Source: an uncultured Acidobacteriota bacterium
GTDB taxonomy: Bacteria > Acidobacteriota > UBA6911
DNA length: 64,000 bases
Assembly: GCA_963827655.1 (NCBI GenBank)
Contig: CAWHCF010000049.1
Location: forward strand, 365,824-429,823
Direction: 5' to 3'
Shown here piece after piece: positions 15,001 through 58,796 of the stretch (position 1 is its first letter; each line of letters starts with the position of its first letter). The position numbers were made by a program, and so were the translations under genes. A model generated the notes under the pieces. It worked only from the letters and a program-made list of their open reading frames with translations. It made no database searches and was not told where the DNA came from.

Positions 15001-15086
15001 AAGACACAATTCATGAAGTAGCCAGGTCATGTATATGATGTCAGAACTACCAAACAAACTCTTTAATGTAGTCTGTTCTTGCCGGG

Positions 15087-15878: not shown

Positions 15879-16100
15879 GCGGTCCGGAGAGTGCGCGACC
15901 GGCGATGTTGATGTCATCAGCCGGCCACGCGCTCGGTTGCTGCTCTATGGGTCGAGGTGGTGCGCCCCGTCAGCGCTCGACCGGCGGGACCCAGCGGAGA
16001 AGTTTCTCTCCAGGGGCTGGGTCTCTGCTGGCTGAGGATTCTCCAGAAGGGTTCCGGTACTCTTCGCACCGGCACACATCCCGAATCAACGGATCGCCGT

Positions 16101-16418
16101 CTCAGGGCAGGGCAGAACCGAACCGTGCGCCCGAACTGAGGGTTCCGGCTACGACATTACCCGCAGCGTCCTGAGCGCCCTGATGCCAGAACTGATTGCC
16201 GATGACGCCCAGATGTTCGAGGATAGTACACTCGGGAGATTCCCTGCCGCCGGTGAGGCGTAGATTACATTGATTGCGCCGGCATTCGTGAATCCCGCGA
16301 CGTCTTCTTCCGCGACGCCGATGGCGAGGTCTGCAGCACCGTCACCGTTAAAGTCTCCGGTGGTGAGGGCCGACCCGAAGCGGTCGTTCTCCTCAGCCTC
16401 ATCTAAGATCGCAGAACT
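16101..16418 (-). pseudogene. FG-GAP/VCBS repeat gene remnant (no start, internal frameshift)
   Basis: Minus-strand translation ILDEAEENDRFGSALTTGDFNGDGAADLAIGVAEEDVAGFTNAGAINVIYAS… Then, in another frame, …GNQFWHQGAQDAAGNVVAGTLSSGARFGSALP*. All three frames carry stops just upstream at ~16419-16425. Confidence 0.45.
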
Positions 16419-16867: not shown

Positions 16868-19800
16868 ATGAGCGATGACGCCGACGGCGTCATGAACCGC
16901 GGCGCCGGTAGACCGCCGACCGACGAAGCCGAGGTGCGGGCAGCCGTCGAGCGAGCGCATGCGCTCCTCGGCGGCGCGGCCGGCCGTCGACGCCGACGAC
17001 GTCGAGGCGCGCCTTACTCGCATCGGCGAGATGATCCGCCTGGCCAGGCGCCTGGAGCGGCCCGGCGGGCAGGACCAGGTGGCACGAGCGCTCGTCGAAA
17101 ACGCACGGGCAGCCGCGATGGATCTGGCGCAGCGTCTCGACCTCGACCAATTCTCGGAACGCGCGAGGGATGGAACGGCCTCGATCGATGACTTCGCCGG
17201 GCTACGGCGGCGCATCGACCACACCATACGCGTGTCCAGACACCTCGAGTATTTCGGTGAGCGAACTCACGCACGGACACTGTTGGCCAGCGCGCGGGTC
17301 GCTGCCATCAATCTCGCTGTTGACATCCTTCGCGGCGCCGGGAGCACGCCAGGCGAGACCTTGGCCCTGGCTAAGCTCCTCGACCGCCTTGACGAGTTCA
17401 ACTTCGCGTGGAGGATTCTCGACAAGGCCCGCGAGCATCGTGACTTCGGCAGAGAGCCCGGCGAGCGGATCCGGATCGTCCAGAAGCGGGCACTCTACAC
17501 ATACAAGGATGTCACCCAGCCTCTCGGCAAGCGGCTCGACGAGGCGCTGACATTTCTTGAGAACGAGGCAGAGCTGAAGACAACGACAGATCAGGAGACG
17601 CTCGGCCTGGCGGGGGCTATCCACAAGCGGAAATGGGAGCTCACCAAGAACGACCGCCACCTGAACGACTCGTACGCCTATTACCATAAGGGATACGCCC
17701 AGAAGCCGTGGAAGGATCAGGGGTATACGAGCATCAACGCCGCCTACCTCCTGGACTTGCTCGCCCAGGCGCATCGAGCCCTGCCGGAGCAGGCCGAGGC
17801 ACACCGTCATCGGGCAGACGAGATCAGGGCGGAGATCATCTCCGTCGTCCCCGAGATGCCGAAGCAGCCCGGTCAGGAGTGGCTGGAGGACATGTGGTTC
17901 TTCTACAGCACGGTCGGCGAGGCGTACTTCGGCCGTGGCGATTTCGACAAGGCTCACCTGTGGCTGGTGACCAAGCCGGAGCTGCGCGGTGTGCGCCCGC
18001 CGGACTGGGAGTTCGAGACGACGGCGCGACAGCTTGCCGAATTGGTGCGGATCCGAAATCCCGACGTCGACTTCGCGTCGACGCCGGCATGGATGGCCTT
18101 CAGGCAGTTCCTCTCTGAAAGCCCGCTCGGCGGGGGAGGCGACGTGAGCAGCGAGGCTGTGGGGCGGCTCGCCGACGGCAAGGCAGGCCTGGCCCTCTCA
18201 GGCGGCGGTTTTCGCGCTTCTCTCTTTCACATCGGCGTCCTCGCTCGACTCGCCGAGCTGGACGTGCTCCGCCGCGTCGAGGTCCTGTCGTGCGTCTCAG
18301 GAGGTTCCATCGTCGGCGCCCACTACTACCTGGAGGTCAGAAAGCTCCTCAGTGAGAAGCCCGACCATCAGATTGAAAAGAAGGACTACATCGAGATTGT
18401 CCAGCGTCTCGAGAAGGAGTTCCTCACCGGTGTGCAGACCAACATCCGCATGAGCGTGGTCACCGAGGCTAAGGCAGTCCGGCGGATGCTCCACCGGAGC
18501 TATTCGCGGACGGTGCGCCTGGGAGAGCTCTACGAGGAGCAGCTCTACTCGCGCGTCGCCCCCATCGAGGGCGAGAAGGTGGATGCGGACAACGGGGTGC
18601 GCGAGCGTTACATGCATGAGCTGGCGATCCACCCCAAGCTCGCGAAGGGTGGTCAATGGACCGACTTTGCGCCAAGGAATCACAACTGGCGGCGCGAGGC
18701 CAAAGCCCCGATCCTTATTCTAAACGCCGCCGCCCTGAATACCGGTCACAACTGGCAGTTCACGGCCAGCTACATGGGCGAGGCGCCCGCCACCATTCAC
18801 CGTGAGATCGACAGCGTCTCGCGGCTGCGTCGCAAGTACTACACAGATGCCCCTCACAGCGCGGCCGCTCCACAGAAGGTGCGGCTCGGCGCCGCGGTGG
18901 CCGCGTCATCCTGTGTGCCCGGTTTGTTCGAGCCCTTGGTGTTCGCGGACATGTACGAGACGCGAGGCAGCGGGCAGCCCATCGACGTCACGCTCGTCGA
19001 CGGCGGCGTCTGCGACAATCAGGGCGTGGCCGGTCTCATCGAACAGGATTGCACCGTCCTGCTCGTCAGTGACGGGAGCGGCCAGATAGACGCGCTGGAC
19101 GCGCCAAGCGCCAGGGCGCTGATGGTGGCCTTGCGCACGAACGGGATCTTGCAGTCGCGTGTCCGCGGCACCCAGTACCGCGAGCTGGATGCGCGGCGCG
19201 GCGCCCTGATGCTGAACGGGTTGATGTTCGTCCATCTTAAGAAGGACCTCGACAACCAACCGGTAGACTGGAAGGACTGCCCTCCGGAGTTGAGGCTCCG
19301 CGCTCCCGATGATCGTGAGGTGCTGACCAAGTACCGAATCTCGAAGGACGTACAGCGGCGGCTGGCCGCCATCCGCACCGATCTCGATTCGTTTTCCGAT
19401 CAGGAGGCCTACGCCCTGATGCTGAGCGGCTATCGGATGACCGAGTATGAGTACGCGAACAGATTCGCTCCCGTGGCCGCGGCCCCCGAGCCGCAGGCCT
19501 GGCGCTTTCGTGCGATCGAGCATGCGATGACGCGGCCGGGTGAAGCTCAGGACTACCTCAACACGATCCTCGACGCCGGGAGCAGCCTCGCCTTCAAGGT
19601 CTGGAAGCTCGATGCGCGGCTCCGGAGCCGCGCGCAGCGCCTGAAGCAGCTGGTAGTCGCGGCTGGCGCGGTCGCCGGGCTCGTCACCTTGCTCGTGCTG
19701 GCCGCTCTGCTGCAGGCCGTGTGGTCACTGTTGGGGGGTGGCGCCTCGGTGTTGCCGGCCGCCGCGCTGACGGGGCTCGGTGCGATCGTCACCGTGGTGG

Positions 19801-20030
19801 CGGTGGTGGTCGTCCTCGGGTCGCTGTTCGCCCTGCTGTTCTATGCGGTGAGGCTGCGAGGGAAGGGCGACGCCGTGGCTCATTTCGCAGTCGGCGCGTT
19901 GCTGCTGTTCGTCGGCGGTCCGGTGGCGCGACACCACATGAGGAAGTACGAGCCAGCGTACCTGGAGCGGGGAAGCATCCGGAAGCTGCCCGGTCCGTCC
20001 AGGGCCGCGTTTAGAACTGCCGCGCGCTGA
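16868..20030 (+). CDS. Patatin-like phospholipase with N-terminal DUF4071-type TPR-like domain and C-terminal 4-helix membrane anchor (putative effector); probable frameshift near 16975 between an SD-equipped ATG at 16868 and the annotated 16959 start
   Basis: Patatin motifs: GGGFRAS (oxyanion loop), CVSGGSIVGAHY (GxSxG nucleophile), DGGVCDNQGV (catalytic Asp). aa ~150-400 align with the TPR region of the 441-aa gene opposite (GAIHKRKWE vs GRIYKDQWE; SYAYYHKGYAQKPWKDQGYTSINAAYL vs AIETYLQGFEADWRDAYPGINAVTL). The C-terminus has four hydrophobic helices (LVVAAGAVAGLVTLLVLAALL…). An aaggag SD sits 7 nt before the ATG at 16868, in frame 2; the annotated ATG 16959 is in frame 0 and has no SD. Confidence 0.8.
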
Positions 20031-20217
20031 TCTCGATTCCCCGGCGCGGATGCCGTCCGGTCGCGGGTCCCTTCGAGCGTCTTCGGGTATAGCAGGAGTC
20101 AACAATGAGTCACCCGGTCAAGCACAACATCCCGTACGCGGAGAGCGACAAGGGAGCGCTACGCCCGATTGAGTTAGCGTCTCGAAGCGCACCTTGAATT
20201 GCTTGGCTGCTCTTAGA

Positions 20218-20240
20218 ACTTCGTGAGGCCTCACGGGGCG
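20218..20240. terminator. Perfect palindrome CGTGAGGCCTCACG (with G run) between convergent genes; candidate bidirectional terminator
   Basis: actt-cgtgaggcctcacg-gggcg lies midway between the patatin stop (20030) and the minus-strand gene stop (20278). Confidence 0.4.
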
Positions 20241-20277
20241 CTTAAATTCGGAGTCGAGTTCAGAAACATATAAAGAA

Positions 20278-21603
20278 TTATTTCGAGTGCTCTAGTAGCT
20301 TCCTCTCAATTTCATCCGCCCAACGAACCTCGTCGTTTCGCTGTTTGCGCGCTTCTCGGATAAGACCCAAGTTTCTCGCCGTGGTTGCTGGTTCCCAGGA
20401 TTCCCGTATTAAGGTCAGCGCAACAGTTAATGAGCTAGTCGCTTGTTGTTGATCTTTGGCTAAGACCGCCAACTCAACCAGAGTGGCATAATCCCAGTAA
20501 TCAGGCTTACCCGTCGCGATACGACGCTCAACCGCGTACGCAACAACCGGGACCAGCCTTTGCTGGCGCGTATCCGGCGGTTCCCTCAGCTCCATCAATG
20601 TAACGGCATTGATTCCAGGGTAAGCGTCTCGCCAGTCAGCCTCGAATCCTTGGAGATAGGTTTCTATGGCCTTTTCCAGCAGGCTCTTTGCGACTGATAT
20701 GTCCTTTCTTTTTGATGCTTCCTCCCATTGATCTTTGTAGATACGCCCAAGAATGCTGCAACTTTCGCTGCTGGGCCCTCGCTTTTCAATCAACTCCTTT
20801 AAAGTCTCTTCGGCTTGGCGTCTCTCGCCGAGGCGATTGAGCGCGAGGGCGAGCTGTTCTTGCACCATGACGGTTGACGCCAAGGGTCGTGACATTTTGT
20901 TTACTAGATCGGTCATTTCCTTCCAGGCCTGAACAGCGCGATAGGAAAGAAGGAGATCAATAACCACTCCAGTGTCACAATGTTCAATGTTGCCAAGCTC
21001 GGCTTCTATTGCGCGCAGCGCTTCAATGTTTTTACCTTTCCGCGCCGCCGCAAGTTGAGCTTTCCTCTCTGGCGAGTATGCTACTACTTCTCGGAAGACG
21101 TCAGTTTTCGTGTGGGCAATACCAGGGTAATTTTCCACCAGCTCATAGATCGAACTGCCAGGAGCCGACTCTCGAACTTCTTTCAATTGAAAAGCCAGCG
21201 CAGCCTTAGCACCCTGAACGTCTTTCAGAGATCCGTTGGAAGTTAGCGCGTAGGTTAAGGTCCGGAGCGTACCGTGGTCAAGGGTCACGCCGCTCGCCTC
21301 GGAAAGGATGACCACCGTAGAGTTCGGACGCACTGCATCCCGCGCACCCAGCTCATAGATCGCGTTGGCATTGGCTGTCGTCAGGTCCACGACCGCGTAC
21401 TCGCAAAGAATAGCTTGCTCAACCATAGGCTTGTGAATCATTCCCCCGATCACCGGCTCATCGGGCCGAATCGCCTCGAGCCCCGCTTCTTTTATTGCAG
21501 GCGCCACCAGGTCTCGATAAATCCCTTCAAAATCGATCGTGAACCCCTTTCCGTCGGCTTTCTGGCCATAGGGCATAAAAACAAAGCAAAGTGGTCGACT
21601 CAT
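20278..21603 (-). CDS. NDT-like (nucleoside 2-deoxyribosyltransferase/TIR-like Rossmann) domain + DUF4071-type TPR protein (ASK1 N-terminal-like)
   Basis: 441-aa intact ORF. N-terminus MSRPLCFVFMPYGQK…AILCEYAVVDLTTANANAIYELGARDAVRP is an NDT-like signature with Glu in an E-[LA]-G context. C-terminal ~250 aa are TPR-like and homologous to the N-terminus of the patatin protein. ~50% GC versus ~63% in flanking genes. Confidence 0.8.
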   Translation of the reverse strand: MSRPLCFVFMPYGQKADGKGFTIDFEGIYRDLVAPAIKEAGLEAIRPDEPVIGGMIHKPMVEQAILCEYAVVDLTTANANAIYELGARDAVRPNSTVVILSEASGVTLDHGTLRTLTYALTSNGSLKDVQGAKAALAFQLKEVRESAPGSSIYELVENYPGIAHTKTDVFREVVAYSPERKAQLAAARKGKNIEALRAIEAELGNIEHCDTGVVIDLLLSYRAVQAWKEMTDLVNKMSRPLASTVMVQEQLALALNRLGERRQAEETLKELIEKRGPSSESCSILGRIYKDQWEEASKRKDISVAKSLLEKAIETYLQGFEADWRDAYPGINAVTLMELREPPDTRQQRLVPVVAYAVERRIATGKPDYWDYATLVELAVLAKDQQQATSSLTVALTLIRESWEPATTARNLGLIREARKQRNDEVRWADEIERKLLEHSK

Positions 21604-21693
21604 AAAATCAGGACCCGTCTCCCTGCACCTCGGCTGAAAAACACCGACGGCTATGAAAACCCGTGCTCTCTCGAGCCACCTGACAATTCGTCT

Positions 21694-22963
21694 TTAAAGC
21701 TCCCAATTCAACACGCGCCGACGGTAAGGATAAGCGATGCGATGCAGAATACCTAACAACTCAACGTCATCGGAGTAAAAGAAGACCTGCTGATCGCGGA
21801 ACATGAACGGAGGGCGACGGCGTGGCGATCGTGCAACCAAATAGAGTTTTGCATCAGCTCCCCGAGCGATACCAGCTTCTATGCAAGTGTTCAAGTTGTC
21901 TTCCGAGATGTCTGAGGCCACCATCGATGCCTTCGCGATTCGCTCAATAATGGTCTGCTGGATCTGGCCCTCGCGAATATCATCGCCCACAACACACGGA
22001 GTTCCCGTGACGCGCTGAAGAATCTGTTTGATGACCTGATTCCGCACTCGGTTTTGATCGTCGAAATTGGTGGAGAGAAAAGTATAGTGGGGCCGTGGAG
22101 GTCGTTTCCATTCATCAGAGATCCACTCAATGCCTTTGCGCAAGCTATTCGCAACTGTGCTGTTGAAACCTCCGTCTGAAGGCGCGACCCGTATTAGACG
22201 TTGCATCGAGCCCTCGGTTACCTGAACACTCGGTTCCGCGATAACAAGGCAAGGCAGGCCGAGCGCTCCAGCAATCTCAATTTCCTGTAGCATGTACTTT
22301 GAAGTCTCACCGTTACCACGATCTGGAAGGATGGCGACCAGTCCCCCACAGCTCGAAATGATGCTCTGAATCCGAGTTGCCTCGACTCCTGGCCAATCCT
22401 TCGAGTCACCAACAAGCCTGAAATCAGCCTGGGCGAGAACTTCTTTGCATATACCGTCGGCCAGGGACGACTCACTTTCTCTCCACGTTCGACTGACGTA
22501 GACGTCACGGGTTTTTTCGAAATCCAGATCCACTTCGTCGTAATACAGATCCGCGAGAAACTGACCATAGGTGACCACTTCTCTCTTATCTTGGACAAGG
22601 TCAACCCACTTGGTCGTTTGCAGGAACCCGGGCACTTGGCATTCGTCAATGCGCACTGGAATAACGCGAAAATCTTTGAGTTGCGTCCGCTGGCCAATCG
22701 CCGCTTCATACTCCTCTCTGACCCAACCCGAATTGATAGAAGCGCTCGATAATACGATGATCATGGAACGGCATTGAGTGACGGATTCCGCGAGTCGTGT
22801 CGCGATGGTAGCGCCGGCGGGTAGATGGCGGGCGTCGTACCAGATCGGAATTCCTGATACCTCACTCAGCCACTTATGCAGACCGTCAACAAATGACTTG
22901 TCGGCATGCGCGTGGCTAAGAAAGGCACAGAACTTGCGCTTGTTTAATGGCAGTTCCCGCCAA
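21694..22963 (-). CDS. TIR-domain protein with two C-terminal NDT-like domains; N-terminal 66 codons of the TIR domain lie upstream of the annotated ATG (22764) with no in-frame canonical start (probable frameshift near 22950, or CTG start)
   Basis: Manual translation upstream of M22764 in the same frame gives a canonical TIR N-half: …LPLNKRKFCAFLSHAHADKSFVDGLHKWLSEVSGIPIWYDARHLPAGATIATRLAESVTQCRSMIIVLSSASINSGWVREEYEAA. A perfect SD aaggagg (22970-22976) and a TTG (22963-22961) sit in a different frame that stops after 15 codons. Downstream domains: DVYVSRTW…CLVIAEP and HYTFLSTNF…ASMVASDISEDNLNTCIEAGIARGADAKLYLV; the second matches the partner gene's NDT-like motif. Confidence 0.75.
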
Positions 22964-40825: not shown

Positions 40826-40984
40826 GCCTGGCCGCAGTCGCGGCATCTGGACGAAAGCGGCGATCTCAAGATGACCACTGATTTCCGGCGCGTTTACGCG
40901 ACGATGCTGGACGAATGGATGGGATGCAAAGATATCCGCTCGCTCTTGCGCGGCGACTATTCCGCCCTGGGAGTTTTCAGCTAA
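40826..40984 (+). pseudogene. 3'-terminal remnant (~50 codons) of a DUF1501-family gene
   Basis: Frame opens after TGA at 40823: …RHLDESGDLKMTTDFRRVYATMLDEWMGCKDIRSLLRGDYSALGVFS*. This matches the characteristic DUF1501 C-terminus (…TTDFRSVYATVLE.WLG…). No upstream coding continuation in any frame. Confidence 0.5.
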
Positions 40985-41221
40985 GGGTTCGCGCAGAAAT
41001 AAGTTCGCATTCTGCTGCAGGCCCCCAGGCCCGCTGGCGAGACGCGAGCGACGATGCGTACCCGGCGCGGTACGTGAGGAGCTAGCAACAAAGCCAGCGG
41101 GCCTGCGGGCCGCAGCCCGAAGGGGCGCGATCCTCGGCGGCTTAGCGAACAGAAACCGGTTCATGATTTGACCACCAACTCTCGCGCCAGAATGTGAAGT
41201 TATTTCTGTGCGAGCCCTAAG
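40981..41221. mobile_element. MITE-like element: 241 bp bounded by ~34-bp imperfect terminal inverted repeats, internal nested palindromes, flanked by direct 9-mer GGAGTTTTC
   Basis: Left arm ctaagggttcgcgcagaaataagttcgcattctg and right arm cagaatgtgaagttatttctgtgcgagccctaag match 29/34 as an inverted repeat. Internal palindromes: aggcccgctggc/gccagcgggcct and gtacccggcgcggtac. ggagttttc occurs at 40970-40978 and 41228-41236. Confidence 0.4.
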
Positions 41222-41284
41222 ATTCTCGGAGTTTTCGGGTCCACTCACGAAGACCTGACGCTACCCGTATCACCGGAGAGCAGG

Positions 41285-42574
41285 ATGAGTCTTGCAAGGA
41301 TCGTATTCTGCGCTGTTTCGATAATTCTGGGGCTGCCCCTCAAGGGGCAGGAGCCGGTGCCGGGCAATCCCGCCGATGTTATCCGGGAGGGTCAAAATCA
41401 GAAGAGAGCGTTAAGAATCGTCGAGGGTGTCTATCAGGCGGTTGGTTTCGGCAACACCTTCATGGTGACCACGAGCGAAGGGAACGTGATCATCGATACC
41501 TCGCTCGCCGCGGGAGCTGCCCACCACGTTAAACTCCTCAAGGCCGAGAATGCCGGGCCGATCCGATATATCATTCTGACCCATGGGCACGGAGACCACA
41601 CCGGCGGTGTGGGGCTGTGGAGAGAACCGGGCACCGCTATCATTGCGCAAAGAAACCATGTTGAATTCATGCACTACCAGGCGCGACTGCACGGATTCTT
41701 CGGATTGCGTAATGCGGCACAGTTCGCTCTGCCCAGGCCGGCGGGCCGCGAGTGGCCCGGCAACTACGGCGCGAAGATCGAGCCCAGCCTCTTGTTCGAC
41801 GACAGACATGAGTTCACCCTCGGCGCGACCAAATTCGAGCTGTATCACACGCCGGGCGAAACACCGGATCATCTCACGGTGTGGCTGCCGCAGAGTAAGG
41901 CCGCCTTCGTGGGCGATAACTATTACCAGTCATTTCCCAACATCTACACCTTGCGCGGCACGCAGCCGCGGTGGGCATTGGACTACATCCATTCGCTTGA
42001 CAAGGTCCTGTCGCTCAAGCCCGAGGTCGTTCTGCCGAGTCACGGTCCGCCTATCCACGGCAATGCGGAGATTACCCGCCTTCTGACGCGCTACCGCGAT
42101 GCCGTTCAATACGTACACGACGAGACGGTGAAAGGGATGAACGCGGGCAAGGATGTTTTTACCCTGATGCGCGAGATCAAGCTTCCCGCCGCACTGGATG
42201 TGGGTGAAGGTTACGGCAAGTTGAGCTGGTCGATACGAGGCATTTACGAAGGGTACGCCGGATGGTTTGACTTGAATCCGGCCACGATGTACGAGGTGCC
42301 TTCGTCTTCTGTTCACGCGGACCTTGTAAGGCTTGCCGGCGGGGCTGGTGCCATTGTCAAGCTGGCGACGGAACGAGTCGAGGGCGGCCGGGCCGTCGAG
42401 GCATTACACCTGATCGAGGCCGCTCTGGCTGCTGATCCGGACAGCCGCCCGGCGCTCGAGGTCCGGCTCAAGGCGCTCCAGTCTCTTCGGGACCGGTCCC
42501 GCAACAGCAATGAGCGCGGGTGGCTGGATTACAGCATAGGCGTTACCAAAGGTAAGCTTGTGGGAAAACAATGA
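41285..42574 (+). CDS. Secreted MBL-fold metallo-hydrolase, alkyl/aryl-sulfatase-like (MBL + dimerisation + SCP2-like C-domain architecture)
   Basis: Signal peptide; YIILTHGHGDHTGG metallo-beta-lactamase motif; ~430 aa, consistent with the SdsA1-like layout. Confidence 0.75.
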   Translation: MSLARIVFCAVSIILGLPLKGQEPVPGNPADVIREGQNQKRALRIVEGVYQAVGFGNTFMVTTSEGNVIIDTSLAAGAAHHVKLLKAENAGPIRYIILTHGHGDHTGGVGLWREPGTAIIAQRNHVEFMHYQARLHGFFGLRNAAQFALPRPAGREWPGNYGAKIEPSLLFDDRHEFTLGATKFELYHTPGETPDHLTVWLPQSKAAFVGDNYYQSFPNIYTLRGTQPRWALDYIHSLDKVLSLKPEVVLPSHGPPIHGNAEITRLLTRYRDAVQYVHDETVKGMNAGKDVFTLMREIKLPAALDVGEGYGKLSWSIRGIYEGYAGWFDLNPATMYEVPSSSVHADLVRLAGGAGAIVKLATERVEGGRAVEALHLIEAALAADPDSRPALEVRLKALQSLRDRSRNSNERGWLDYSIGVTKGKLVGKQ

Positions 42575-44620: not shown

Positions 44621-47600
44621 TTACAGGCGGATTTCGGCCTCGCGGGCAGGCAGGATGCGCACCGGCCCCAGGAGCCCGGATGCGAGCAGCGGCGTGCTCT
44701 TATTCCAGCGCGCGTTGGTGCGCGCAAGCTCCGATGCTTCCGACAGCGCCTGACCGGTCAAGCGATTTGACCACGTGTTGGCCACTTCCACCTCCAGGCG
44801 GTTCGTGCCGGCGTCTGCCGCTTGAGTGATCTCGAGCCGGAACGGTCGGGTCCAGCAGATTCCTGCTTCTTTGCCGTTAAGGCGGAGGCGGGCGATCACG
44901 CGCACATCACCCAGGTCGAGAAACAGGCGCAGACCGGGTTCGAAAAGCTCACCAGGGAGGTCGACCGTCTTACTGTAAGTGGCGATTCCGGAGAAATACT
45001 TGATCCCCGGCTCGGTGTTTTCCGTCCATGACACCAGCCTCGGGAAAGTTGTCGAGACGGGCGCTCCCCAGCCCTCGCCGAAACGAACGTCCCACGGTCC
45101 GGCGATCTCAACTGCCGGAGGCATCCTGTCCAGCGTACAGTTCGACTGCCGACCGGCACGGACCCGGTAAGAGCCGGGACTGAACGAGAGCAGCTTCACG
45201 CGGTCTTGATCCGGCATCGACACTTCAACCGATGGGAGATGCTCGATCGCCATGTTGGCCGCGACCGCCTGTCCATCGCGGACAATTGTTAAAGGTTCCG
45301 AGTTCGTGGACCGGTCGAACACCACGAACGACGAGCCGAGGGGTGGGAGAACGAGTGGAACGCGCGTACCGCCGCCGTCGGCTCCGGATACGGGCAGCGG
45401 GTGCCTGACACCGGTCACGGGATCCCAGAGATTCGGCCGGCCCTTTTGCGCGAAAGACGCAATCAGCCGGGGCCCATTCTTCGCCCTTGTTGCGGACGAA
45501 GTAGACGTCGCGAGGGCCGTCCCGGCGATGGATGTAATCGAGATCGATTTGGCCGCCACGGCCCGAGAAAGAGAAATCCGGCCGCAATCCGCGGCGTCGC
45601 AGAATCTCGGCGATGGACACGCCGCAATAGACCATGCCCTTACCGTGCGCCCGCTCTCGGATCCGTACGCCATCGCAATCGCCCCAGAGCCTGGAAGCAA
45701 GATCCCGCACCCTGGCGTCGCAATCGGGATAGTCCCTCAGGCCTGTGGCGCGCCGGGGCCTCGGCCCGGAAACAGTCGCGCCTTCGCGGACCAGTTGCTC
45801 GATCCGTTCGAGAACCTCGACATCCAGGTCGCGGCGATCAGGCAAGACGAGCACTTCGTAGCTCAAACCATCAGGGAGGACCAACCTGCGGTTTTTGACC
45901 ACGATTCGGTTCAGGAGCGCATCCGAGTTCGTGGTGTCGAAGTCGTAGCCGGTGGGCAAGCCGATTTCGGCCGCGGAGCTTTTTTCAGGCGCGAAGTTGA
46001 AGCCCCGCTCGCCGTAGTAGTAGCAGATGTCGGCGACGAACAAGCCCTGCCGCAGGAACCAGGAGCAGCGGGCAAGGTAATCGAGAAACGGGTTGACCAT
46101 TGGCCACCAGGTTTCGTTCGGGCCGAAGTGAGTGCCGGCGTGATAGACCCATCCAGGCTTGCCCGCCTGCTCGGGCACGTGCGGCATGGTATGCCAGACG
46201 AAGTGATTGGCGCCGTCGCAGAAAGCGCGGTCGGCAATTTCTTTGATGTCACGTGGGCCGTCCTGCCAGTGCCGGAAGCTGGTGAATGCTTCCATTTGCA
46301 CCAGAGGCCGGCCGTAAATGTGGGCTGCCGAAGCGGTCTCTTTCACCACCCAGGTCTGCCGTCCCTTCCAGAATTCGCCTCGGGGAATGTCCAGAGCGCC
46401 CTGGGCTCTGAGCGCATCGACGGGGACCTGGTGCAATGGCCAGCCGGGGCCGCCGGCTTCGGCGACCAGCTTCAGCCCGTACTCTGAAGCGGTCTCCCGG
46501 GTCACGCGGTAGAAGTTATCGATAAACAGGTCACTGACGGTGCGACGGTAATCGATGCGGAAGCGTTCCGACACGTCTTCGTCTGCAACTACGGCGCCCG
46601 CCAGTACCGGCAGATAGCGGCGCGGGTCGTAGCCGCGCCGGCGACGGAATTCCTCGATAAAGTTCGGAGTCCAGATCGAGCCACGGACCTCGTAGCTGCA
46701 CGCATAAAAATACTTCAGCGCCGTCTTGCGAAGATCGCCCAGCTCCGCGCGCAGGCGCTCCAGCATATGCCGCGTGTGCATGCGGGCTGCATCCGCGCTG
46801 AAGTGATCGATAATGAAACCATCGGAGTGCGGGCTGGGGGCTTTCAGCTTTTCTCCGTTATTGGCCGCGATGAATCGGTACACAATCCATTTTCCGGCAG
46901 GGACGTCCCAGGTGAGGCGGTTGTGCGCGTCGAGACGGCTCGTCAGGTCCAGGATCTCCGATGGATCTCTGACCAGGGGAGGAGCCCCGCTCACGGCGGC
47001 CCAGCTACCCTCGGGGCCGGTCAACCGCCCATCATAGATATTTTCGGCCATCCACTCGCGCTCGAGGCCAGCCTCCGTGGTGAAGCGCACCAGGCCCCCG
47101 ACCGTCTTGCGGCCGTCGGCCGTCTGGACTGTCACGACGTTGTGGCGTCGGCCGAGAACGCTTCGAACTCAGCCAGCGCCACGCGGCCACCGGGATCATG
47201 ACCGGAGACGACGCGGAGCTTCAGGAACTTCGCGCGAGCGGGCGGAATCGTAAAGGATTGTGCTCCCGTGCGGGCCTGCAGGGTACCGCGAAATGCTTCA
47301 CGGAAATCCGAGGCATCGCTTCCCGATTCCGAAGCGTAGATGACAAACTCTTTGACGGATGAGTCCGACGCGGCATTGTGCAGCGTCACGCGGTTCACGG
47401 TGTGAGTCCCCGGGGCGAGATCGAAGACGAAGTCGAAACCCGGCCAGCTCTCATCAGCCGAAAGTGCGAGCACGGCCACGTCGTTGTAGTAGGCGGGCGA
47501 GCCGTCGAGGTTTCGCGGCACCGGCGCGGGAAGCTTCGGGAAGGGCAATACCTCGGAGAAAGTGGCAGGTCCCTGGACGGTCATGCGCGACCAATACAGT

Positions 47601-48025
47601 CCCTTGCTTGCGTGGTTCGGGCCGACCCACGATCCGCCGGAGTTCCAACTGCTGGCGTTGGTAAGGCCGACTTCCATGCCTAGACGTCCGGCTTCGCGCA
47701 CGGCGTGAGCGATCGCCTGGAGAGACTCCGTCCCCATGTATGCAGGTCCGGCTGGCACGCGATCGCCCGCGCGAGCCCCGATTTCCAGGATGTAGACGGC
47801 GCTGATGCCTGCTTTCTTCAGCTCCTCCAGTTCGCGGGTCATGCTGCGCCTGTCGGTGAATCCATTCAGCCATACCCAGTAGGTGGACGGGCGCGCCTCC
47901 CAGGGCGGATCGGCGAAGTGGGATACGTCCGCGTCGGCGCGCAGTTGTCGCGCTGCCAGCAAGGCGCCGCCGGCAATGAGAAATTCGCGGCGATTCAATC
48001 GGGTCTCCGCCATGGCCTCGCTCAA
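44621..48025 (-). pseudogene. Large (~1130 aa) Tat-secreted glycoside-hydrolase-like protein with inserted discoidin-like domain and GH2-type sugar-binding-like C-terminal domain; split over 3 ORFs (4-nt overlap at 47132-47135; frame change within 45225-45700)
   Basis: 47132-48025: Tat signal RREFLIAGGALLAA, TIM-barrel start (YWVWLNGF…AVYILEIG) and an F5/8-type-C-like segment. 45225-47135: …KYFYACSYEVRGSIWTPNFIEEFRRRRGYDPRRYLPVLAG…. 44621-45700: …RLFLDLGDVRVIARLRLNGKEAGICWTRPFRLEIT…NRLEVEVANTWSNRL. Could alternatively be 2-3 translationally coupled genes. Confidence 0.55.
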
Positions 48026-48435: not shown

Positions 48436-49428
48436 TCAGGTTGCGCTCCGCTGCATCTCTCGTCCGCTGTCGGGGAGGTTAAGCTTCCACCAGGATTCCG
48501 CGTGGGTTTGGGTCCAGCGGGCTCCCAATTCCACCTTATTCAATTCTTCCCAGAGTTCCAAGGCTGAAGAAGGCCTATCCGTTGGCAGCTTTTCCAGGCA
48601 GGCGAGAACGATGTCGTCAAGAGTTGCGGGAATGTGGAGCTTGCACTCTTGCGATGGCGGGGAAGGTTTCCGCTGAGTATGCTCGAGCATCAGTTGGACC
48701 ACGTTGTCGGCTTCAAAAGGAGGTCGTCCGGTCAGCATCCAGTAAGCCACGCACCCGACGCCGTACAAGTCCGCCCTGTGGTCCACCGCCTGTCCGAGGA
48801 TTACTTCCGGTGCCGCGAAGGCAGGCGTCCCCACGAAGCCGCCGGTGCCGGTAACCGTCGTCTGCTCGCACGCTGCCCCCTCCTTGACCATTCCAAAATC
48901 CAGTACCTTGAGAAAGTCGTATTCGGAACCCATCTTGCACACGAAAATGTTGCCCGGCTTGATATCTCGATGGACGAGTCCGGCTTCGTGCGCCTCGGTC
49001 AGGGAACGGCACGTCTGTTGCAACAACATGGCGGCGAGCTGCATGGCCATCATCCCGGTATAGTGCATGGCGCCGATTCCAAGACCCATCAACATGCCAC
49101 TCAGCAGGAGAAGCGGAACACTCCACTGCTTCCGGCTCATCATCAACAAAACGACTCCTGCCGCCAGAACCGATGGGATCACCGACAACAACGTTGTCTG
49201 GATATCGTAGGTGACAGGAATCGGCAGGCGCAGGGCCAGCATGCCGATGAAGTGCATTGCCCATACGCCCATTCCCATAGTCGCGGCGCCGGCGACGAGC
49301 CAGGCGGCGAGGGTCGACGTTTTCTCCGATCCCTTAATGCGACCGGACAGTCCGAAGACCGCATAAGAGGCGATGGAAGCAATCACAACGGAGACTGCTA
49401 CAAGCTCCGGGTTGTAGGAAGCTGGCAG
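48436..49428 (-). CDS. Chimeric MHYT-domain (membrane sensor) N-terminus fused in-frame to a Ser/Thr-kinase C-lobe lacking the ATP-binding N-lobe; probable CTG start with strong SD
   Basis: MHFIGM and MHYTGM motifs in TM helices, then directly …AAMLLQQTCRSLTEAHEAGLVHRDIKPGNIFV…DFGMVK…APE… (kinase subdomains VIb-XI only). Upstream in frame there is no ATG/GTG/TTG, but aaggag + 7 nt + CTG at 49428 gives LVPIKFLTGSSSVDLALPASYNPELVAVSV…, the typical MHYT N-terminus. Confidence 0.55.
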   Translation of the reverse strand: MPASYNPELVAVSVVIASIASYAVFGLSGRIKGSEKTSTLAAWLVAGAATMGMGVWAMHFIGMLALRLPIPVTYDIQTTLLSVIPSVLAAGVVLLMMSRKQWSVPLLLLSGMLMGLGIGAMHYTGMMAMQLAAMLLQQTCRSLTEAHEAGLVHRDIKPGNIFVCKMGSEYDFLKVLDFGMVKEGAACEQTTVTGTGGFVGTPAFAAPEVILGQAVDHRADLYGVGCVAYWMLTGRPPFEADNVVQLMLEHTQRKPSPPSQECKLHIPATLDDIVLACLEKLPTDRPSSALELWEELNKVELGARWTQTHAESWWKLNLPDSGREMQRSAT

Positions 49429-52988: not shown

Positions 52989-53710
52989 ATGACATCTACA
53001 AGCTGACCCCTATCCATCACTGGCATCAGCAACATGGTGCCCGTTTCGTGCTGGAGGCAGGGTGGAAGCGGGTCGAAAGCTACGGCAACCCGGAACAGGA
53101 GGTGTCGCAGGTTTCCACGGCGGCCGGCATCTGCGACGCCACCCCGCTGACCAAAATCGATCTTCAAGGTAAGGATGCAGCCGCTTTCCTGGCCAGGCAG
53201 CTGCCTGGAGCCGCCATCCCCGCGTTGGGATTTCACAACCGCGTCCGCCTCTCCGGCGATGAGAAAGGCGGTGAACTTCAAGTTGCCCGCTTGAAGACCG
53301 AGCGTTTGCTGGTCTTTGGCCCTCCTGATGCACGGGATGTTTTAGTTCCACGCTTCGCCGAGCGCGCTACTAGCCTGGAATGCTCGCACGTCACCGACTT
53401 GACCTCGGCCTTTGCTGCGATGCGTCTGGTCGGTCCTTCAAGCGCCGCCGTGCTGAAGAAAATCTGCCCGCTTGATTTGGATCGACTGGCCTCTGGGCGG
53501 TGTGCCCAGGCGCCGGTTGCGCGAGTGGGGGCGGTGGTGCTGCGGGATGACCTCATGGGATGGATGGGCTACCTGATCCTGGTTTCCAGGGACTATGGCG
53601 AATATGTCTGGAAAAGCATGCTGTCCGCCGGGGAAGGGCTTCATATGGGTTATTTCGGTTTGACGGCGGAAAAGAGAGTGAAAAGTAAAAAAGTAAAAAG
53701 TGCTGAGTAG
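52985..53710 (+). CDS. soxG: Sarcosine oxidase gamma subunit (GcvT-like)
   Basis: 241 aa; ATGA overlap with soxA (translational coupling); MNDIYKLTPIHHWHQQHGARF… resembles SoxG/aminomethyltransferase N-terminus. Confidence 0.8.
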   Translation: MNDIYKLTPIHHWHQQHGARFVLEAGWKRVESYGNPEQEVSQVSTAAGICDATPLTKIDLQGKDAAAFLARQLPGAAIPALGFHNRVRLSGDEKGGELQVARLKTERLLVFGPPDARDVLVPRFAERATSLECSHVTDLTSAFAAMRLVGPSSAAVLKKICPLDLDRLASGRCAQAPVARVGAVVLRDDLMGWMGYLILVSRDYGEYVWKSMLSAGEGLHMGYFGLTAEKRVKSKKVKSAE

Positions 53711-53842
53711 AAAGTGCTGAGGGGAAAGTAGGGAGGAAGCGATGGCGGAGAGAAAAAGAGTCGAACGGTTTGAGGATTTGATTGCGTGGCAGAAGGCGCG
53801 CGTTGAGGCTCTCTGCCCTCAAGCGGAGGAGGTGAACATCGG

Positions 53843-53875
53843 TCGCTTAGCGTTTCTTTGTGTCTTTGTGTCTTG
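53843..53875. repeat. REP-like extragenic repeat (cgcttagcgtttctttgtgtctttgtgtcttgg)
   Basis: Between soxG and soxB; same family as 10682-10740. Confidence 0.55.
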
Positions 53876-55101: not shown

Positions 55102-55368
55102 CAAGAAAAATGGATCGGCGAGTCCTCGACGCCGCAGGTTCTCACCGGCGCAGCTCATTCTGTCGCCGAGGAAATGTCGGTAACAATGGTGCCCCCCTGG
55201 TTCGGAGCTTCCGTCATCAATCGTGGTGAAGACCAATCCGGATTTTTTTGGTCGTCGCCGATTGTCCGAATCTGTCCGTCTGAAGCTCCCGCAACGGAGA
55301 GTGCGGCTATTTTTCGATCATTGAACCGGCAAAAGTGGGCTGCTCTTTCGAGCCAGCGATCAAGATTT

Positions 55369-55944
55369 TCATGAGTTCTTAGACCCAGCCTCTCCACCGT
55401 CTTCAGGCGGATAATAATAATGAGGCACTGGGTCTAAACGCCGGAACAGGACCACGCCTCCCTCGAATGGCTCAGCGCGGAGCACGTCCTGCCGGTGGCG
55501 GGCCGCCTCGAGACCAGGCACGTCGTCCGCCACCAGCGTGATTCCGAACAAGGTATCGGCTTGGTACTCCTCGGGATCAATATCGGCTTCGGCCTCCTCA
55601 TCGAAGAACACGTACTGCAGGTGGAGGCGCCGCAGGAGTTCTTCTCCGATGTGAATCAAGGTGCGCGTCAGTTCTTTCCGCCCATGCCGGTTCCCCACCG
55701 CCTCGAACAGTTCTTCGTCAATGTCCAGCGTAGAAGCGACCCATCCGTCCCGCTGGTAGGATCGGCAGGTCATCGGCAGGCCCTCCCCGACGAAGGAAAG
55801 AATCCACTGCCTCACTCGCATCCCATCCATCGAAACGCCGGCGTCGCCGGGATTCAGCCCGGCGTGTTCCAGAGCCTGATCCAAAGTGGCGGCATCCTCG
55901 AGCGATCCCGGCCAACCAAAGGCTAAGCTGACAAAGGCACCCAT
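55369..55944 (-). CDS. Acidic small protein immediately downstream of the toxin-like gene (putative immunity protein)
   Basis: 191 aa. SD ggtgagg 6 nt upstream of ATG. Start lies 3 nt after the stop of the upstream gene. Acidic stretch FFDEEAEADIDPEEYQ. Confidence 0.45.
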   Translation of the reverse strand: MGAFVSLAFGWPGSLEDAATLDQALEHAGLNPGDAGVSMDGMRVRQWILSFVGEGLPMTCRSYQRDGWVASTLDIDEELFEAVGNRHGRKELTRTLIHIGEELLRRLHLQYVFFDEEAEADIDPEEYQADTLFGITLVADDVPGLEAARHRQDVLRAEPFEGGVVLFRRLDPVPHYYYPPEDGGEAGSKNS

Positions 55945-55947
55945 CGG

Positions 55948-56928
55948 CTACCTCACCCGGAAGTTCGAAGCGCCTGACGGTGGCGCAGTCAGTTTGACGC
56001 CGGCCAGTTTGTTGGCCGCATTGGTCCAGCCGCTAATGAAATTCCCCGAAAGATCGGTGACCACGATCTGATTCCCCTTAAAGGCATGCACGGCCCATGG
56101 AGAATTGTGATACGGACCGAGATAGACTTCATCGGCTTTGGCGACCACTTCGTCCACGGCGTTCTTAAACTGGGCATGGGCTGCCTTATCCGTCGCCTTC
56201 CACGACGTCGCGACACCGAAGTCGGCAGCATGTTTCCACTTCTTCTGGAGGCTCGACGCGGACATCGTCGTGGCCGTGAGCGCAGCGGCCTTGTCGAGAT
56301 CGGCCTTGCCAACCTTTTGAAGCGCTTCGCCCCCATATTTGATCATCGCATCGGCGCCGTCCTGCGTGACGAGCTTGACGAAGTCATCCACGCCGACCTT
56401 GGCGATCGTGTCCTTGAGGGTCAGCCCGTGGAACGTCGTCGCGTCCATACTCTTGAACAGGCGCTCGGTGACGCTGGCGCCTAGCTCTTTGGTCAGTTTC
56501 TCGACGACGTTCTGGCCCAATTCCTTGAGTAACTTGCCCGCGGCTTCCGCGCCAAACTTGTCTACAAGACCCTTGAGACCCGCCGCCGTCATGTCGGCGG
56601 TGAGATCGCCCACCGCTTTGGCTCCCATCTCCCGCGTCAGCGCCTGAACCGCGTCCACGCCAAGCGTGTCCACAAGCTCCTTCAACCCCTTAGCTCCGAG
56701 GCGGTCGGTAAGTTCCTTGACGGCGTTCACTCCGAGCTTCTCTACGACGGTTTTGAGCGTCGCCGAGCCAAGCGTCTCGGCGAGTTGTTTCACGCCCTGG
56801 GTGCCGAGGTTATCTACGACTTGTTTCAAAGTTCGTGGGCTGAGCTCCTCGGCTAGTTCGGCTGTCAGCTTAGGGCCGAGTTCCTTCGCCAGCTTCTCGA
56901 AGCCTTCCTTGCCGAACTCTTTGATCAT
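55948..56928 (-). CDS. Helical-repeat protein (LGxxAVKxLxxxLG ~12-aa repeats) with distinct C-terminal ~110-aa toxin-like domain
   Basis: 326 aa. ~14 tandem repeats, then …KKWKHAADFGVATSWKATDKAAHAQFKNAVDEVVAKADEVYLGPYHNSPWAVHAFKGNQIVVTDLSGNFISGW… ATGA overlap with the upstream 85-aa ORF. The upstream frame also reads sensibly (…VTREMIKEFGK), so this may be one fused protein. Confidence 0.5.
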   Translation of the reverse strand: MIKEFGKEGFEKLAKELGPKLTAELAEELSPRTLKQVVDNLGTQGVKQLAETLGSATLKTVVEKLGVNAVKELTDRLGAKGLKELVDTLGVDAVQALTREMGAKAVGDLTADMTAAGLKGLVDKFGAEAAGKLLKELGQNVVEKLTKELGASVTERLFKSMDATTFHGLTLKDTIAKVGVDDFVKLVTQDGADAMIKYGGEALQKVGKADLDKAAALTATTMSASSLQKKWKHAADFGVATSWKATDKAAHAQFKNAVDEVVAKADEVYLGPYHNSPWAVHAFKGNQIVVTDLSGNFISGWTNAANKLAGVKLTAPPSGASNFRVR

Positions 56929-57182
56929 CTCGCGGGTAACCGTTTGCCGCTCAGGCGTATCGTGACCTCCAACGCGGCGATCTTACCCGCGACCTTGCTA
57001 CGCACCAGCTTGCTCAGCCACTTCACGCCCTTACCAATCCCCTTGGCGCCCTTGGCCACATATTTCAGAAGGTTGCCCAGCCCTGGGATCGCGAAAATGC
57101 CGGAGATGATCCGGCCGACGATGCCGACTTTCTCCCCCGTAACGGGATTGACGCCGGTCACAGCAATGATGGCATCCTTCAC
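56925..57182 (-). CDS. Pre-toxin TG (PT-TG)-like segment
   Basis: …FAPGVSNVKDAIIAVTGVNPVTGEKVGIVGRIISGIFAIPGLGNLLKYVAKGAKGIGKGVKWLSK matches the PT-TG pattern (TGxDPxTGE + Gly/Lys-rich tail). Frame is sensible upstream of the GTG, back to ~57215 (DFAPGVSN). Confidence 0.45.
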   Translation of the reverse strand: MKDAIIAVTGVNPVTGEKVGIVGRIISGIFAIPGLGNLLKYVAKGAKGIGKGVKWLSKLVRSKVAGKIAALEVTIRLSGKRLPAR

Positions 57183-58068
57183 ATTGCTTACTCCCGGGGC
57201 GAAATCGGTCCCAGATCGGCGATGATTTCTCCGACATCGGTTTTATCCTCCTTCTCTCAGGTTTCTGCTCTCGCTCCTCTTCGGAAAGAGGCGGCGCCGA
57301 AGACAGCGGGGCGGGAAACATGTAGGGTTGTCCGGCGTTCTTGTCGGACCGGGGCGAGAAGACGTAAACGTCATAATCGAAGGGTTGCTTCAGCCAGAGC
57401 TTGGAGTCAGGCTCGCGCTCAGGGTGGTACCCGACGCGTTCCGCGAACGCGCGCGCGACAATCCCTTTGGTGGGGTGCCGAAAGGCCGTGTAGGATGGGC
57501 GAATCGTGCCGCCCTTCACGTACTTGCGATAGACGAAACTCGCCGTGGTTTCCGCTAAGAGATCGCGATCAATCCCGGCGTTCTCGGCGATGATGGCGCG
57601 AACGAGCAGTGCGCCGGGCTTTGTGCTGTAGAACGTAGATCCAGCCCGGTGCCAGCGATATCCAGGGAAGCTCTCCTCATCGATGGGGTCGGTTGCTTCG
57701 GTGGGAGATTTGTCATCAGGATGACGTTGAAGCGTGGGCGACGCCGTAGCTCCTATCTGGAGGCCTGCGTTGGCGGGCGCCTGGAGTAAACGCTGCATGT
57801 AGCGGTTGCCGTAATGCTGCTGCAGCCGCTCGGCCAGTGCGTGCTGCACTGGACGGCTGGCCGGGCTACCGCGTTGCCGGCCAGTGAGGAGGGAGCGGTG
57901 GCGTTCGACGGGCGGATTCGTCAGTCTTCCGCCGCCGTTCGTCTGCGTCGAAGCCGCATCGGCCACGCGCTGTGCCGGTGTCAACTGCGGTTGTGGTGCG
58001 AGCTCCGGTTCGGTGGAGTGCTTAAGCTCTTCGGTTTTCTTACTCGTGGATTCTCTGCTCGCCGTCAT
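57031..58068 (-). CDS. N-terminal region of a polymorphic-toxin-like protein with DUF4157-type leader (…ALAERLQQHYGNRYMQRLL…LQRHPDD)
   Basis: 345-aa ORF. Protein-like to ~57215, then Arg/Cys-rich nonsense (…CEGCHHCCDRRQSR…) while the PT-TG frame becomes sensible. This implies a frameshift near 57205-57215 and a single large protein 58068->55948. Confidence 0.5.
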   Translation of the reverse strand: MTASRESTSKKTEELKHSTEPELAPQPQLTPAQRVADAASTQTNGGGRLTNPPVERHRSLLTGRQRGSPASRPVQHALAERLQQHYGNRYMQRLLQAPANAGLQIGATASPTLQRHPDDKSPTEATDPIDEESFPGYRWHRAGSTFYSTKPGALLVRAIIAENAGIDRDLLAETTASFVYRKYVKGGTIRPSYTAFRHPTKGIVARAFAERVGYHPEREPDSKLWLKQPFDYDVYVFSPRSDKNAGQPYMFPAPLSSAPPLSEEEREQKPERRRIKPMSEKSSPIWDRFRPGSKQCEGCHHCCDRRQSRYGGESRHRRPDHLRHFRDPRAGQPSEICGQGRQGDW

Positions 58069-58423
58069 TGAGCGGATAGGTAGGGCAAGGAGCCTTTTTC
58101 GGGGGTAGTTCTGCGGCGGCTTTCCTCAACGGTTTCTGAGTTCAGCTAACTTCCGGCAGTTCCTGCACCGTTGCCAATCGGGCCGGAAGGGCTATCTTAC
58201 CTCGATCGATGCCGACAACGGTGGAGTTTTCGCACACTCCGTCTTCCGGCGCGAGCTGCGGGCGCTACTCGAGGAGCAGCGAGCGAACCAGCGTGGTCCG
58301 AGGTCCGAGGGATCGGCCCTCCGAATGTACAGGACCTTCGGCACGTATACGACCTTCAGCGCTCATGGTTGTGAGCCCCAATTTTCCCGGCCTCAGTCCG
58401 GGTATAGCGAAGCAACGCCTGGG

Positions 58424-58470
58424 GCGGTAGCAAGCTTGCGCCTTGTGCCGCGGGCACCTTGCTGCCGCGA
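58424..58470. repeat. GCAAGCTTGC-type palindromic repeat (gcggtagcaagcttgcgccttgtgccgcgggcaccttgctgccgcg)
   Basis: Matches 23096-23120 and 24850-24905; preceded by hairpin cccggcctcagtccggg. Confidence 0.5.
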
Positions 58471-58796
58471 AATGACCAATCTCCAGGCGCGGGTCTGATC
58501 GGCGCCACACAAGCCAAAACGCTCCGGTCAATCGAGAACTGTTCACTGAATTGTTCACACTTCTCACAGACGGGCTAGTACGGTTGGCCCTTGTGGCTTT
58601 CCCCGTCTTCGTTCTCGGCCAGCGAGCACTGTCTGAATCTCAGGACTGTATTTGGTGGAGATAGATTTTCCTTTCGGGAATAATGCAAATCAGCCGCTTC
58701 CCGTGGGATCACCCGAACGAGGAATCACTGTCCCGACGGATCGCGCGGCGAAAATCTTGTTGATACTGGATGAATCAAAGGGAGGTGGCCGTACCC

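Follow-up and report, generated by a model that had tools for sequence, protein, structure and literature searches.

Colicin D of E. coli, which cuts tRNA-Arg isoacceptors, and the domain DUF4157, which carries the current Pfam name eCIS_core and was earlier called 'PVC-metallopeptidase', are the nearest reference points for the locus analysed here. In colicin D, the residues K607, K608, H611, D614, and S677 are essential (PMC3482391). Tox-ColD is already listed among the PVC-type toxins, and two immunity families have been published for it, Imm64 being one of them (PMC3482391). DUF4157 is the most specific marker of toxins associated with extracellular contractile injection systems (eCIS) (PMC8213781; PMC3482391), and a study on the eCIS AlgoCIS has found that a disordered N-terminus is needed for loading into the tube, while DUF4157 is dispensable (bioRxiv 10.64898/2026.05.27.728243). 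We here describe a 3.5-kb element found in a 64,000-nucleotide (nt) stretch of DNA from an uncultured Acidobacteriota bacterium (hereafter the window), consisting of a toxin gene with a C-terminus of the colicin D type and a small acidic gene directly behind it. On the evidence set out below, positions 55102-58643 are likely a strain-variable island carrying a polymorphic toxin, deliverable through its N-terminal module and frameshifted in this genome, together with its cognate immunity gene. Tox-ColD polymorphic toxins with Imm64-like immunity and a relation to PVC/eCIS are known, and what is new here is minor, namely an uncharacterised domain in the N-terminal module and an unnamed family of immunity proteins; the findings leave current concepts unchanged.

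A first-pass annotation, made from the letters of the window, had described a series of open reading frames (ORFs) at this locus and had read them as a polymorphic toxin with its immunity gene. All of these, four in number, were recovered in the ORF listing, on the minus strand at 58068-55369 (Table 1), and the reading itself is supported by the presence of a PT-TG pre-toxin domain, by a Colicin_D tip, by the variable tips of relatives, and by the linkage of the immunity gene. The ORFs that had been described as a series are, however, the fragments of a single gene of 707 amino acids (aa), whose splitting had gone unnoticed. The domain order leader, post-core domain, PT-TG, repeats, and Colicin_D is found in an intact 707-aa relative and likewise across the fragments in the window.

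Table 1 Features of the toxin-immunity locus, followed by conflict-type genes elsewhere in the window (pI, isoelectric point; L001, the related contig described in the text).
Feature	Position	Strand	Remark
Strain-variable island with toxin and immunity genes	55102-58643	n/a	from alignment to related strains
Toxin gene	55948-58068	-	one 707-aa gene in intact relatives; here ORF1 + ORF2 + ORF3
ORF1	58068-57031	-	345 aa
ORF2	57182-56925	-	85 aa, GTG start
ORF3	56928-55948	-	326 aa, ATG start
ORF4 (putative immunity gene)	55944-55369	-	191 aa, intact, pI 4.5
N-terminal leader	57712-58068	-	polar, probably disordered
Leader motif LQQHYGNRYMQRLL	57825-57784	-	kept in relatives P0006, P0031, P0033, P0042, P0044
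Leader motif LQRHPDD	57732-57712	-	
'Post-core' alpha/beta domain	57274-57741	-	ORF1 aa ~110-265 (~155 aa)
Frameshift 1	57258	-	1-nt deletion, GG to G, relative to L001
PT-TG pre-toxin domain (PF14449)	57021-57230	-	from Pfam; interrupted by frameshift 2
Frameshift 2	57212	-	1-nt deletion, GGGG to GGG, inside PT-TG domain
Frameshift 3	56941	-	1-nt deletion, GGG to GG; frame back to that of ORF1
Helical 12-aa repeats (xxLxxxLGxxxxKx)	56299-56928	-	~12 clear, 3-4 degenerate
Predicted colicin-D-type tRNase domain (ORF3 aa 221-306) and conserved tail ending NFRVR	55951-56268	-	PF11429, PDB matches
TPR-S + patatin phospholipase	16959-20030	+	1023 aa
MAP3K_TRAF_bd + TPR-S protein	20278-21603	-	441 aa
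TIR-domain ORF	21694-22764	-	TIR starts upstream of first ATG/GTG/TTG in frame

The C-terminal domain of about 110 aa in ORF3, which the first-pass annotation had recognised as distinct and left without a name, was identified as Colicin_D (PF11429), the Pfam match covering aa 227-306 with 51.8 bits against a cut-off of 25; a phage-tail or structural identity of this C-terminus is ruled out by the same match. A search against NCBIfam gave nothing useful. Moreover, the tip matched the colicin D nuclease structures 1V74, 1TFO, 1TFK, and 5ZNM with E values between 1.6e-7 (1V74) and 1.7e-6, and the five essential residues of colicin D are all kept (5/5), K229, K230, H233, D236, and S299 of ORF3 aligning to them in the order given above. 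The same residues are likewise kept in five other loci. The domain is basic (pI 9.7), and the Colicin_D domains of six toxins (L001, L005, L007, L009, L011, and L014) form a tight subfamily having an extra C-terminal tail (...NKLAG...APP...NFRVR). Judged from sequence, the tip of ORF3 appears to be a catalytically competent RNase of the colicin D type (BECR fold), with predicted activity on tRNA. Colicin D and ImmD of E. coli (1V74, 1TFO, 5ZNM) are similar to the present pair in having a homologous catalytic domain (E~1e-7) with the motifs KKxKHAxDFG and FxSGW and a small acidic inhibitor encoded directly downstream, whereas the window toxin lacks the translocation and receptor domains of colicins, is chromosomal and not plasmid-borne, and possesses the extra C-terminal tail.

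ORF4, described earlier as a small acidic ORF lying 3 nt downstream of the toxin, indeed begins 3 nt past the toxin stop codon (TAG CCG ATG), has GGTGAGG immediately upstream, and carries a net charge of -19. Its exact sequence sits in a 90%-identity cluster that includes proteins of other assemblies. Homologues were found in about 30 clusters among 5.8 billion sequences (34-64% identical, 175-193 aa), in none of which a Pfam domain was detected, and a profile scan of genome contigs with the family yielded loci in metagenome-assembled genomes (MAGs), at least three in number. At six of six independent loci, the homologue begins 0-3 nt behind a gene whose product has Colicin_D at its end, and these upstream genes vary apart from that end: they encode the 707-aa toxin in L001, LG-repeat proteins in two Thermomicrobiales MAGs (L005 and L011), a 2179-aa protein with eCIS_core and Colicin_D in L007, a 258-aa protein in L009, and a 1151-aa protein with apolipoprotein-like repeats in a Rickettsiales MAG (L014). 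This linkage supports the proposal that the tightly coupled acidic gene confers immunity, and it connects a small family of unannotated proteins with ColD immunity.

The family to which this immunity protein belongs was less readily named. ORF4 matched Imm64 (PF15600) with 15.9 bits, under the cut-off of 25 (E 0.012); sub-threshold matches to Imm64 were obtained for 8 of 24 family members (best E 9.2e-5) with no other Pfam family recurring, and a profile search with the ORF4 family recovered no protein annotated as Imm64. ImmD-type immunity was considered and rejected, there being no match to ORF4 in sequence or fold. The AlphaFold2 (AF2) model of ORF4 has a predicted local distance difference test score (pLDDT) of 91.4, and a Foldseek search with ORF4 gave no PDB match at E<=0.001, so that the evidence from its fold is at most suggestive. 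Both the position of the family under the Pfam cut-off for Imm64 and the negative Foldseek result weigh against the assignment of ORF4 as a cognate ColD immunity protein. The loop EEAEA (E116-A120) is invariant in the family and is plausibly the contact for the basic active site of the RNase, by which ORF4 would neutralise the toxin. In comparison with the Tox-ColD PVC/eCIS toxins that have Imm64 (PMC3482391), the locus has in common a C-terminal RNase of the colicin D fold including its essential residues, an immunity gene directly downstream (Imm64-like only below the threshold), an N-terminal module homologous to that of DUF4157/eCIS_core toxins, and variable tips among relatives. It differs from them in that the toxin has PT-TG and 12-aa helical repeats in place of the metallopeptidase, its gene is frameshifted, and no injection-system genes are linked to it.

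The manner in which the toxin gene is broken became evident by comparison with a contig of ENA assembly ERZ25039531 (contig_54840; hereafter L001), which is syntenic with the window at 99% identity across 12.6 kb. At the syntenic site, L001 has a single 707-aa ORF (L001:3874-5997) containing both PT-TG and Colicin_D and followed by the same 191-aa gene, and a second intact 707-aa gene occurs on a JGI contig from sample 3300067032. In the stretch of the toxin gene, L001 and the window are 99.5% identical, and base-by-base alignment revealed 10 substitutions (2124 nt) and exactly three 1-nt deletions in the window, all of them contractions of short G runs. The deletions add up to -3, placing ORF3 in the frame of ORF1, yet stop codons intervene, as seen by three-frame translation. 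The first clue to the frameshifts had come from ORF2, in which the segment described earlier as pre-toxin-TG-like passes the Pfam threshold for PF14449 (35.3 bits, cut-off 23.5) with a match that begins only at profile position 19 and extends over positions 19-68 of 68. The intact L001 protein gave 48 bits over positions 4-68, and this fuller match indicates that deletion 2 cuts through the domain. The helical repeats that follow, previously counted as about 14, do have a 12-aa period in a number agreeing with that count, and their region gave weak MgtE_N-like Pfam matches. Thus, the three deletions would uncouple the leader from the RNase and cut through PT-TG, and most likely the strain retains immunity and has lost a deliverable toxin. 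Programmed -1 frameshifting was examined as another explanation of the broken frame and rejected: the sites CCT-GAG, TCT-GGG, and AAC-GGT are no slippery heptamers, and the relative uses one frame throughout.

The intact ColD domain of ORF3, an ATG that overlaps the stop codon of ORF2 (ATGA), and the intact immunity gene downstream might also suggest that ORF3 and ORF4 form an intracellular toxin-antitoxin or abortive-infection pair, in which a 326-aa RNase is made from the internal ATG. We regard this as very improbable, because in the intact protein that ATG simply encodes one of the internal Met residues (VTREMIKEF), the architecture of the relatives is that of exported polymorphic toxins, and ORF3 was found to have neither a promoter of its own nor a strong Shine-Dalgarno sequence. 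In a scan for promoters and terminators, the relevant strand scored no better than the shuffled background.

The toxin gene is probably inactivated in this genome in reality and not through misassembly. The alignment with the relative extended over about 23 kb of the window. Apart from those in the toxin gene, in a GH106 gene, and in a noisy stretch of a gene for an MHYT kinase, all of the indels were intergenic or affected the final codon of a gene, and about 13 kb of other coding sequence aligned to the relative had zero indels. Indels kept out of other coding sequence in this way point to selection on real polymorphisms, not to random base-calling errors, which would mostly hit genes, and hence favour genuine inactivation. 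It seems unlikely that the gene is instead intact in the organism and encodes a functional 707-aa toxin, with the three deletions arising as assembly or base-calling errors, although several observations speak for such errors and weigh against inactivation. Every deletion contracts a G run (GG, GGGG, GGG); the assemblies are possibly from long reads, in which case such homopolymer contractions may be errors of assembly, and the name of the relative's contig, contig_54840, resembles the output of a long-read assembler. Furthermore, the MHYT-kinase gene of the relative contains a locally noisy stretch, and with 10 substitutions in 2124 nt a long neutral decay of the toxin gene is not evident. 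Apart from the distribution of indels, errors are made less probable by the shortness of the affected runs (2-4 nt), by the non-homopolymer insertions (+CA, +T) in the other broken gene, GH106, and by the splitting of GH106 in other assemblies (L016 and L017) as well.

GH106, encoding an alpha-L-rhamnosidase at 44621-48025 (-), is the second multiply broken gene of the window and is represented by three ORFs of 297, 636, and ~359 aa. Relative to an intact 1129-aa gene in L015, it has 2 additional nt at 47144 and 1 at 45431, neither being a homopolymer change; the gene is split into 953 + 186 aa in L016 and into 753 + 385 aa in L017. The splitting across strains reflects either recurrent decay or a gene that is hard to assemble. 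The adjoining kinase-like gene encodes 316 aa in the window (48436-49386, -), is split into 72 + 204 aa in L015 (9783-10615), where indels and mismatches are densely clustered, and encodes an 807-aa MHYT + sigma54-activator + Pkinase protein in L016 (6875-9298), so that in several strains this region is either decaying or poorly assembled.

The N-terminal part of the toxin was analysed with respect to a possible delivery signal. ORF1 aa 1-110 are polar, poor in order-promoting residues, and contain 65% disorder-promoting residues, a figure based on composition, and the AF2 pLDDT is about 50 at the start of the modelled segment. No hydrophobic segment was found in aa 1-110, indicating that the leader has no Sec signal. 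The first-pass annotation had called it a DUF4157-type leader, which holds in part. The DUF4157 domain itself is absent: ORF1 had no Pfam match whatsoever at E<=1, and hence none to DUF4157/eCIS_core (PF13699), and the intact L001 protein had no eCIS_core match at E<=0.001 and contains no HExxH motif. On the other hand, the leader (LQxxxGNxxxxRLL...LQRxPD) and the domain next to it are homologous to the flanks of eCIS_core in an uncommon set of toxins. When 1.84 billion representative proteins were scanned exhaustively with HMMER, 15 relatives of the N-terminal module were found, whereas a word-indexed homologue search with the N-terminus returned one. In 7 of the 10 relatives whose domains were scanned (P0033-P0036 and P0038-P0040), the homologue of the post-core domain lies directly C-terminal to eCIS_core, and in an eighth (P0041), which also has eCIS_core, the match starts about 20 residues further on. 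The leaders of the eCIS_core relatives have the motif LQRxxGNQAxxRxL in common and LQRxPD just ahead of the shared domain, and their C-termini include Ntox4 (PF15541), OmpA domains, and a weak, sub-threshold deaminase match. The post-core domain gave no fold match in the PDB.

Two further relatives, P0006 and P0031, have the leader, the post-core domain, PT-TG, and the first LG repeats as in the window toxin, also without eCIS_core. Their alignment to the window toxin ends after the first repeats, and their tips are Cys-rich and unrelated. Behind P0031 (508 aa; L020 193-2205), a 159-aa gene unrelated to ORF4 follows 7 nt later and is a candidate immunity protein for this unnamed small toxin tip. 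As read from these sequences, the combination of the same N-terminal half with differing tips is the classic pattern of polymorphic toxins.

Presumably, it is through the N-terminal module that the protein enters a device for export or injection, and this device is most likely an eCIS of the PVC/eCIS type. Inside the target cell, the basic ColD domain would then cleave the anticodon loops of tRNA and translation would stop, while in the producer cell the acidic 191-aa protein, translationally coupled to the toxin, would bind and block the RNase with the EEAEA loop as the candidate blocking contact. Delivery by an eCIS is put forward tentatively, as the most likely route but one falling a little short of probable; it is favoured by the homology to the flanks of eCIS_core, by the occurrence of eCIS_core together with Colicin_D and this immunity family in L007, by the published data on markers and loading of eCIS toxins, and by the listing of Tox-ColD among PVC-type toxins. 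Weighing against it, no eCIS gene or gene of a type VI or type VII secretion system (sheath, tube, baseplate, and AAA+ domains) was found among the 20 largest other ORFs of the window, the toxin lacks the very domain that defines PVC-type toxins, and PT-TG is known also from toxins exported by other routes. The contigs that carry P0039 and P0031 are so short that no eCIS genes are seen on them.

It is accordingly possible, if somewhat doubtful, that the protein is a genuine toxin and not eCIS cargo, being exported by another or an unknown pathway that recognises the leader, the post-core domain, or PT-TG, or being released by lysis in the manner of a bacteriocin. Besides the absence of eCIS_core and of injection-system domains, this would fit with the metabolic genes that surround the island and with the loss of the metallopeptidase and gain of PT-TG in three members of the family (the window toxin, P0006, and P0031). 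It would fit less well with the finding that the N-terminal module has its detectable relatives only among eCIS_core proteins (of 10 scanned, 9 have eCIS_core or are PT-TG toxins), with the lack of a Sec signal or hydrophobic N-terminus, with the frequent location of eCIS cargo genes apart from the particle operon, and with the dispensability of DUF4157 for AlgoCIS loading. AlgoCIS Cgo1 and Cgo2 and the DUF4157 eCIS toxins (PMC8213781; bioRxiv 10.64898/2026.05.27.728243) resemble the window toxin in the succession of an N-terminus, in the window toxin probably disordered, a folded module, and a C-terminal effector, and in relatives of the window toxin DUF4157/eCIS_core immediately precedes the post-core domain that they share with it. 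They differ in that the window toxin has no DUF4157 and is known from its sequence, with no demonstrated particle; many eCIS toxins also have no immunity gene, whereas the window toxin has one. The window toxin shows that toxins related to eCIS_core proteins can be without the marker domain, so that genome screens based on the marker would undercount the cargo. A more far-reaching proposal, which we consider improbable, is that the leader and post-core domain suffice by themselves for trafficking or loading, with no need of the DUF4157 metallopeptidase, and mark out a new sub-class of toxins, injected or exported, in a little-studied soil lineage, possibly Gemmatimonadales, with the unnamed family of 180-190-aa immunity proteins as a new type of ColD inhibitor acting via the EEAEA loop.

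On one side, the island is bordered by a cluster for sarcosine oxidase (SoxD, SoxA, SoxG, and a DAO-family subunit), and on the other by a heparinase II/III-like gene. As to taxonomy, the one hint from these sequences is that a cluster mate of a neighbouring protein, at >=90% identity, carries the annotation Gemmatimonadales. The island is carried by L001/L015. Two other contigs with flanks 95-96% identical to the window (L017 and L018) align up to 55101, where the DAO gene ends, and again from about 58644, with about 230 nt in between and no toxin or immunity gene at this site. L016 has other genes there, that is, a 444-aa gene (15072-16406, -) showing no Pfam match and no similarity to the toxin or the immunity protein, followed by a Pkinase/RDD protein and an ECF sigma factor. 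From the site without the cassette in L017/L018 and with other genes in L016, it follows that the region ~55102-58643 is an accessory island showing the presence/absence polymorphism that one expects of conflict genes. A broken toxin with retained immunity on an island that varies among near-identical strains illustrates, on a small scale, how a toxin arsenal turns over in nature. Arrays of orphan toxin tips and immunity genes are frequent in polymorphic toxin systems without being obligatory; a check for such pairs downstream, which the first-pass annotation had proposed, found none, as ORF4 and the convergent DAO gene are only about 270 nt apart and tblastn detected no further toxin, eCIS_core, or immunity copies in the window.

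Other differences among the strains were noted near the island and elsewhere in the window. A 23S_rRNA_IVP gene (PF05635) is present between the SoxG-like and DAO genes in L002 (2299-3012), L017 (13482-13913), and L018 (13669-14088), and is missing from the window (equivalent position ~53710-53860) and from L001. A 1.6-kb stretch at ~40932-42546 with an alkyl sulfatase of the metallo-beta-lactamase type (gene 41285-42574) is absent from the 99%-identical L015 and present in L016 and L018, and is another presence/absence polymorphism. Finally, a cluster of conflict-type domains occupies 16959-22764 of the window (Table 1) and may represent an anti-phage defence island.

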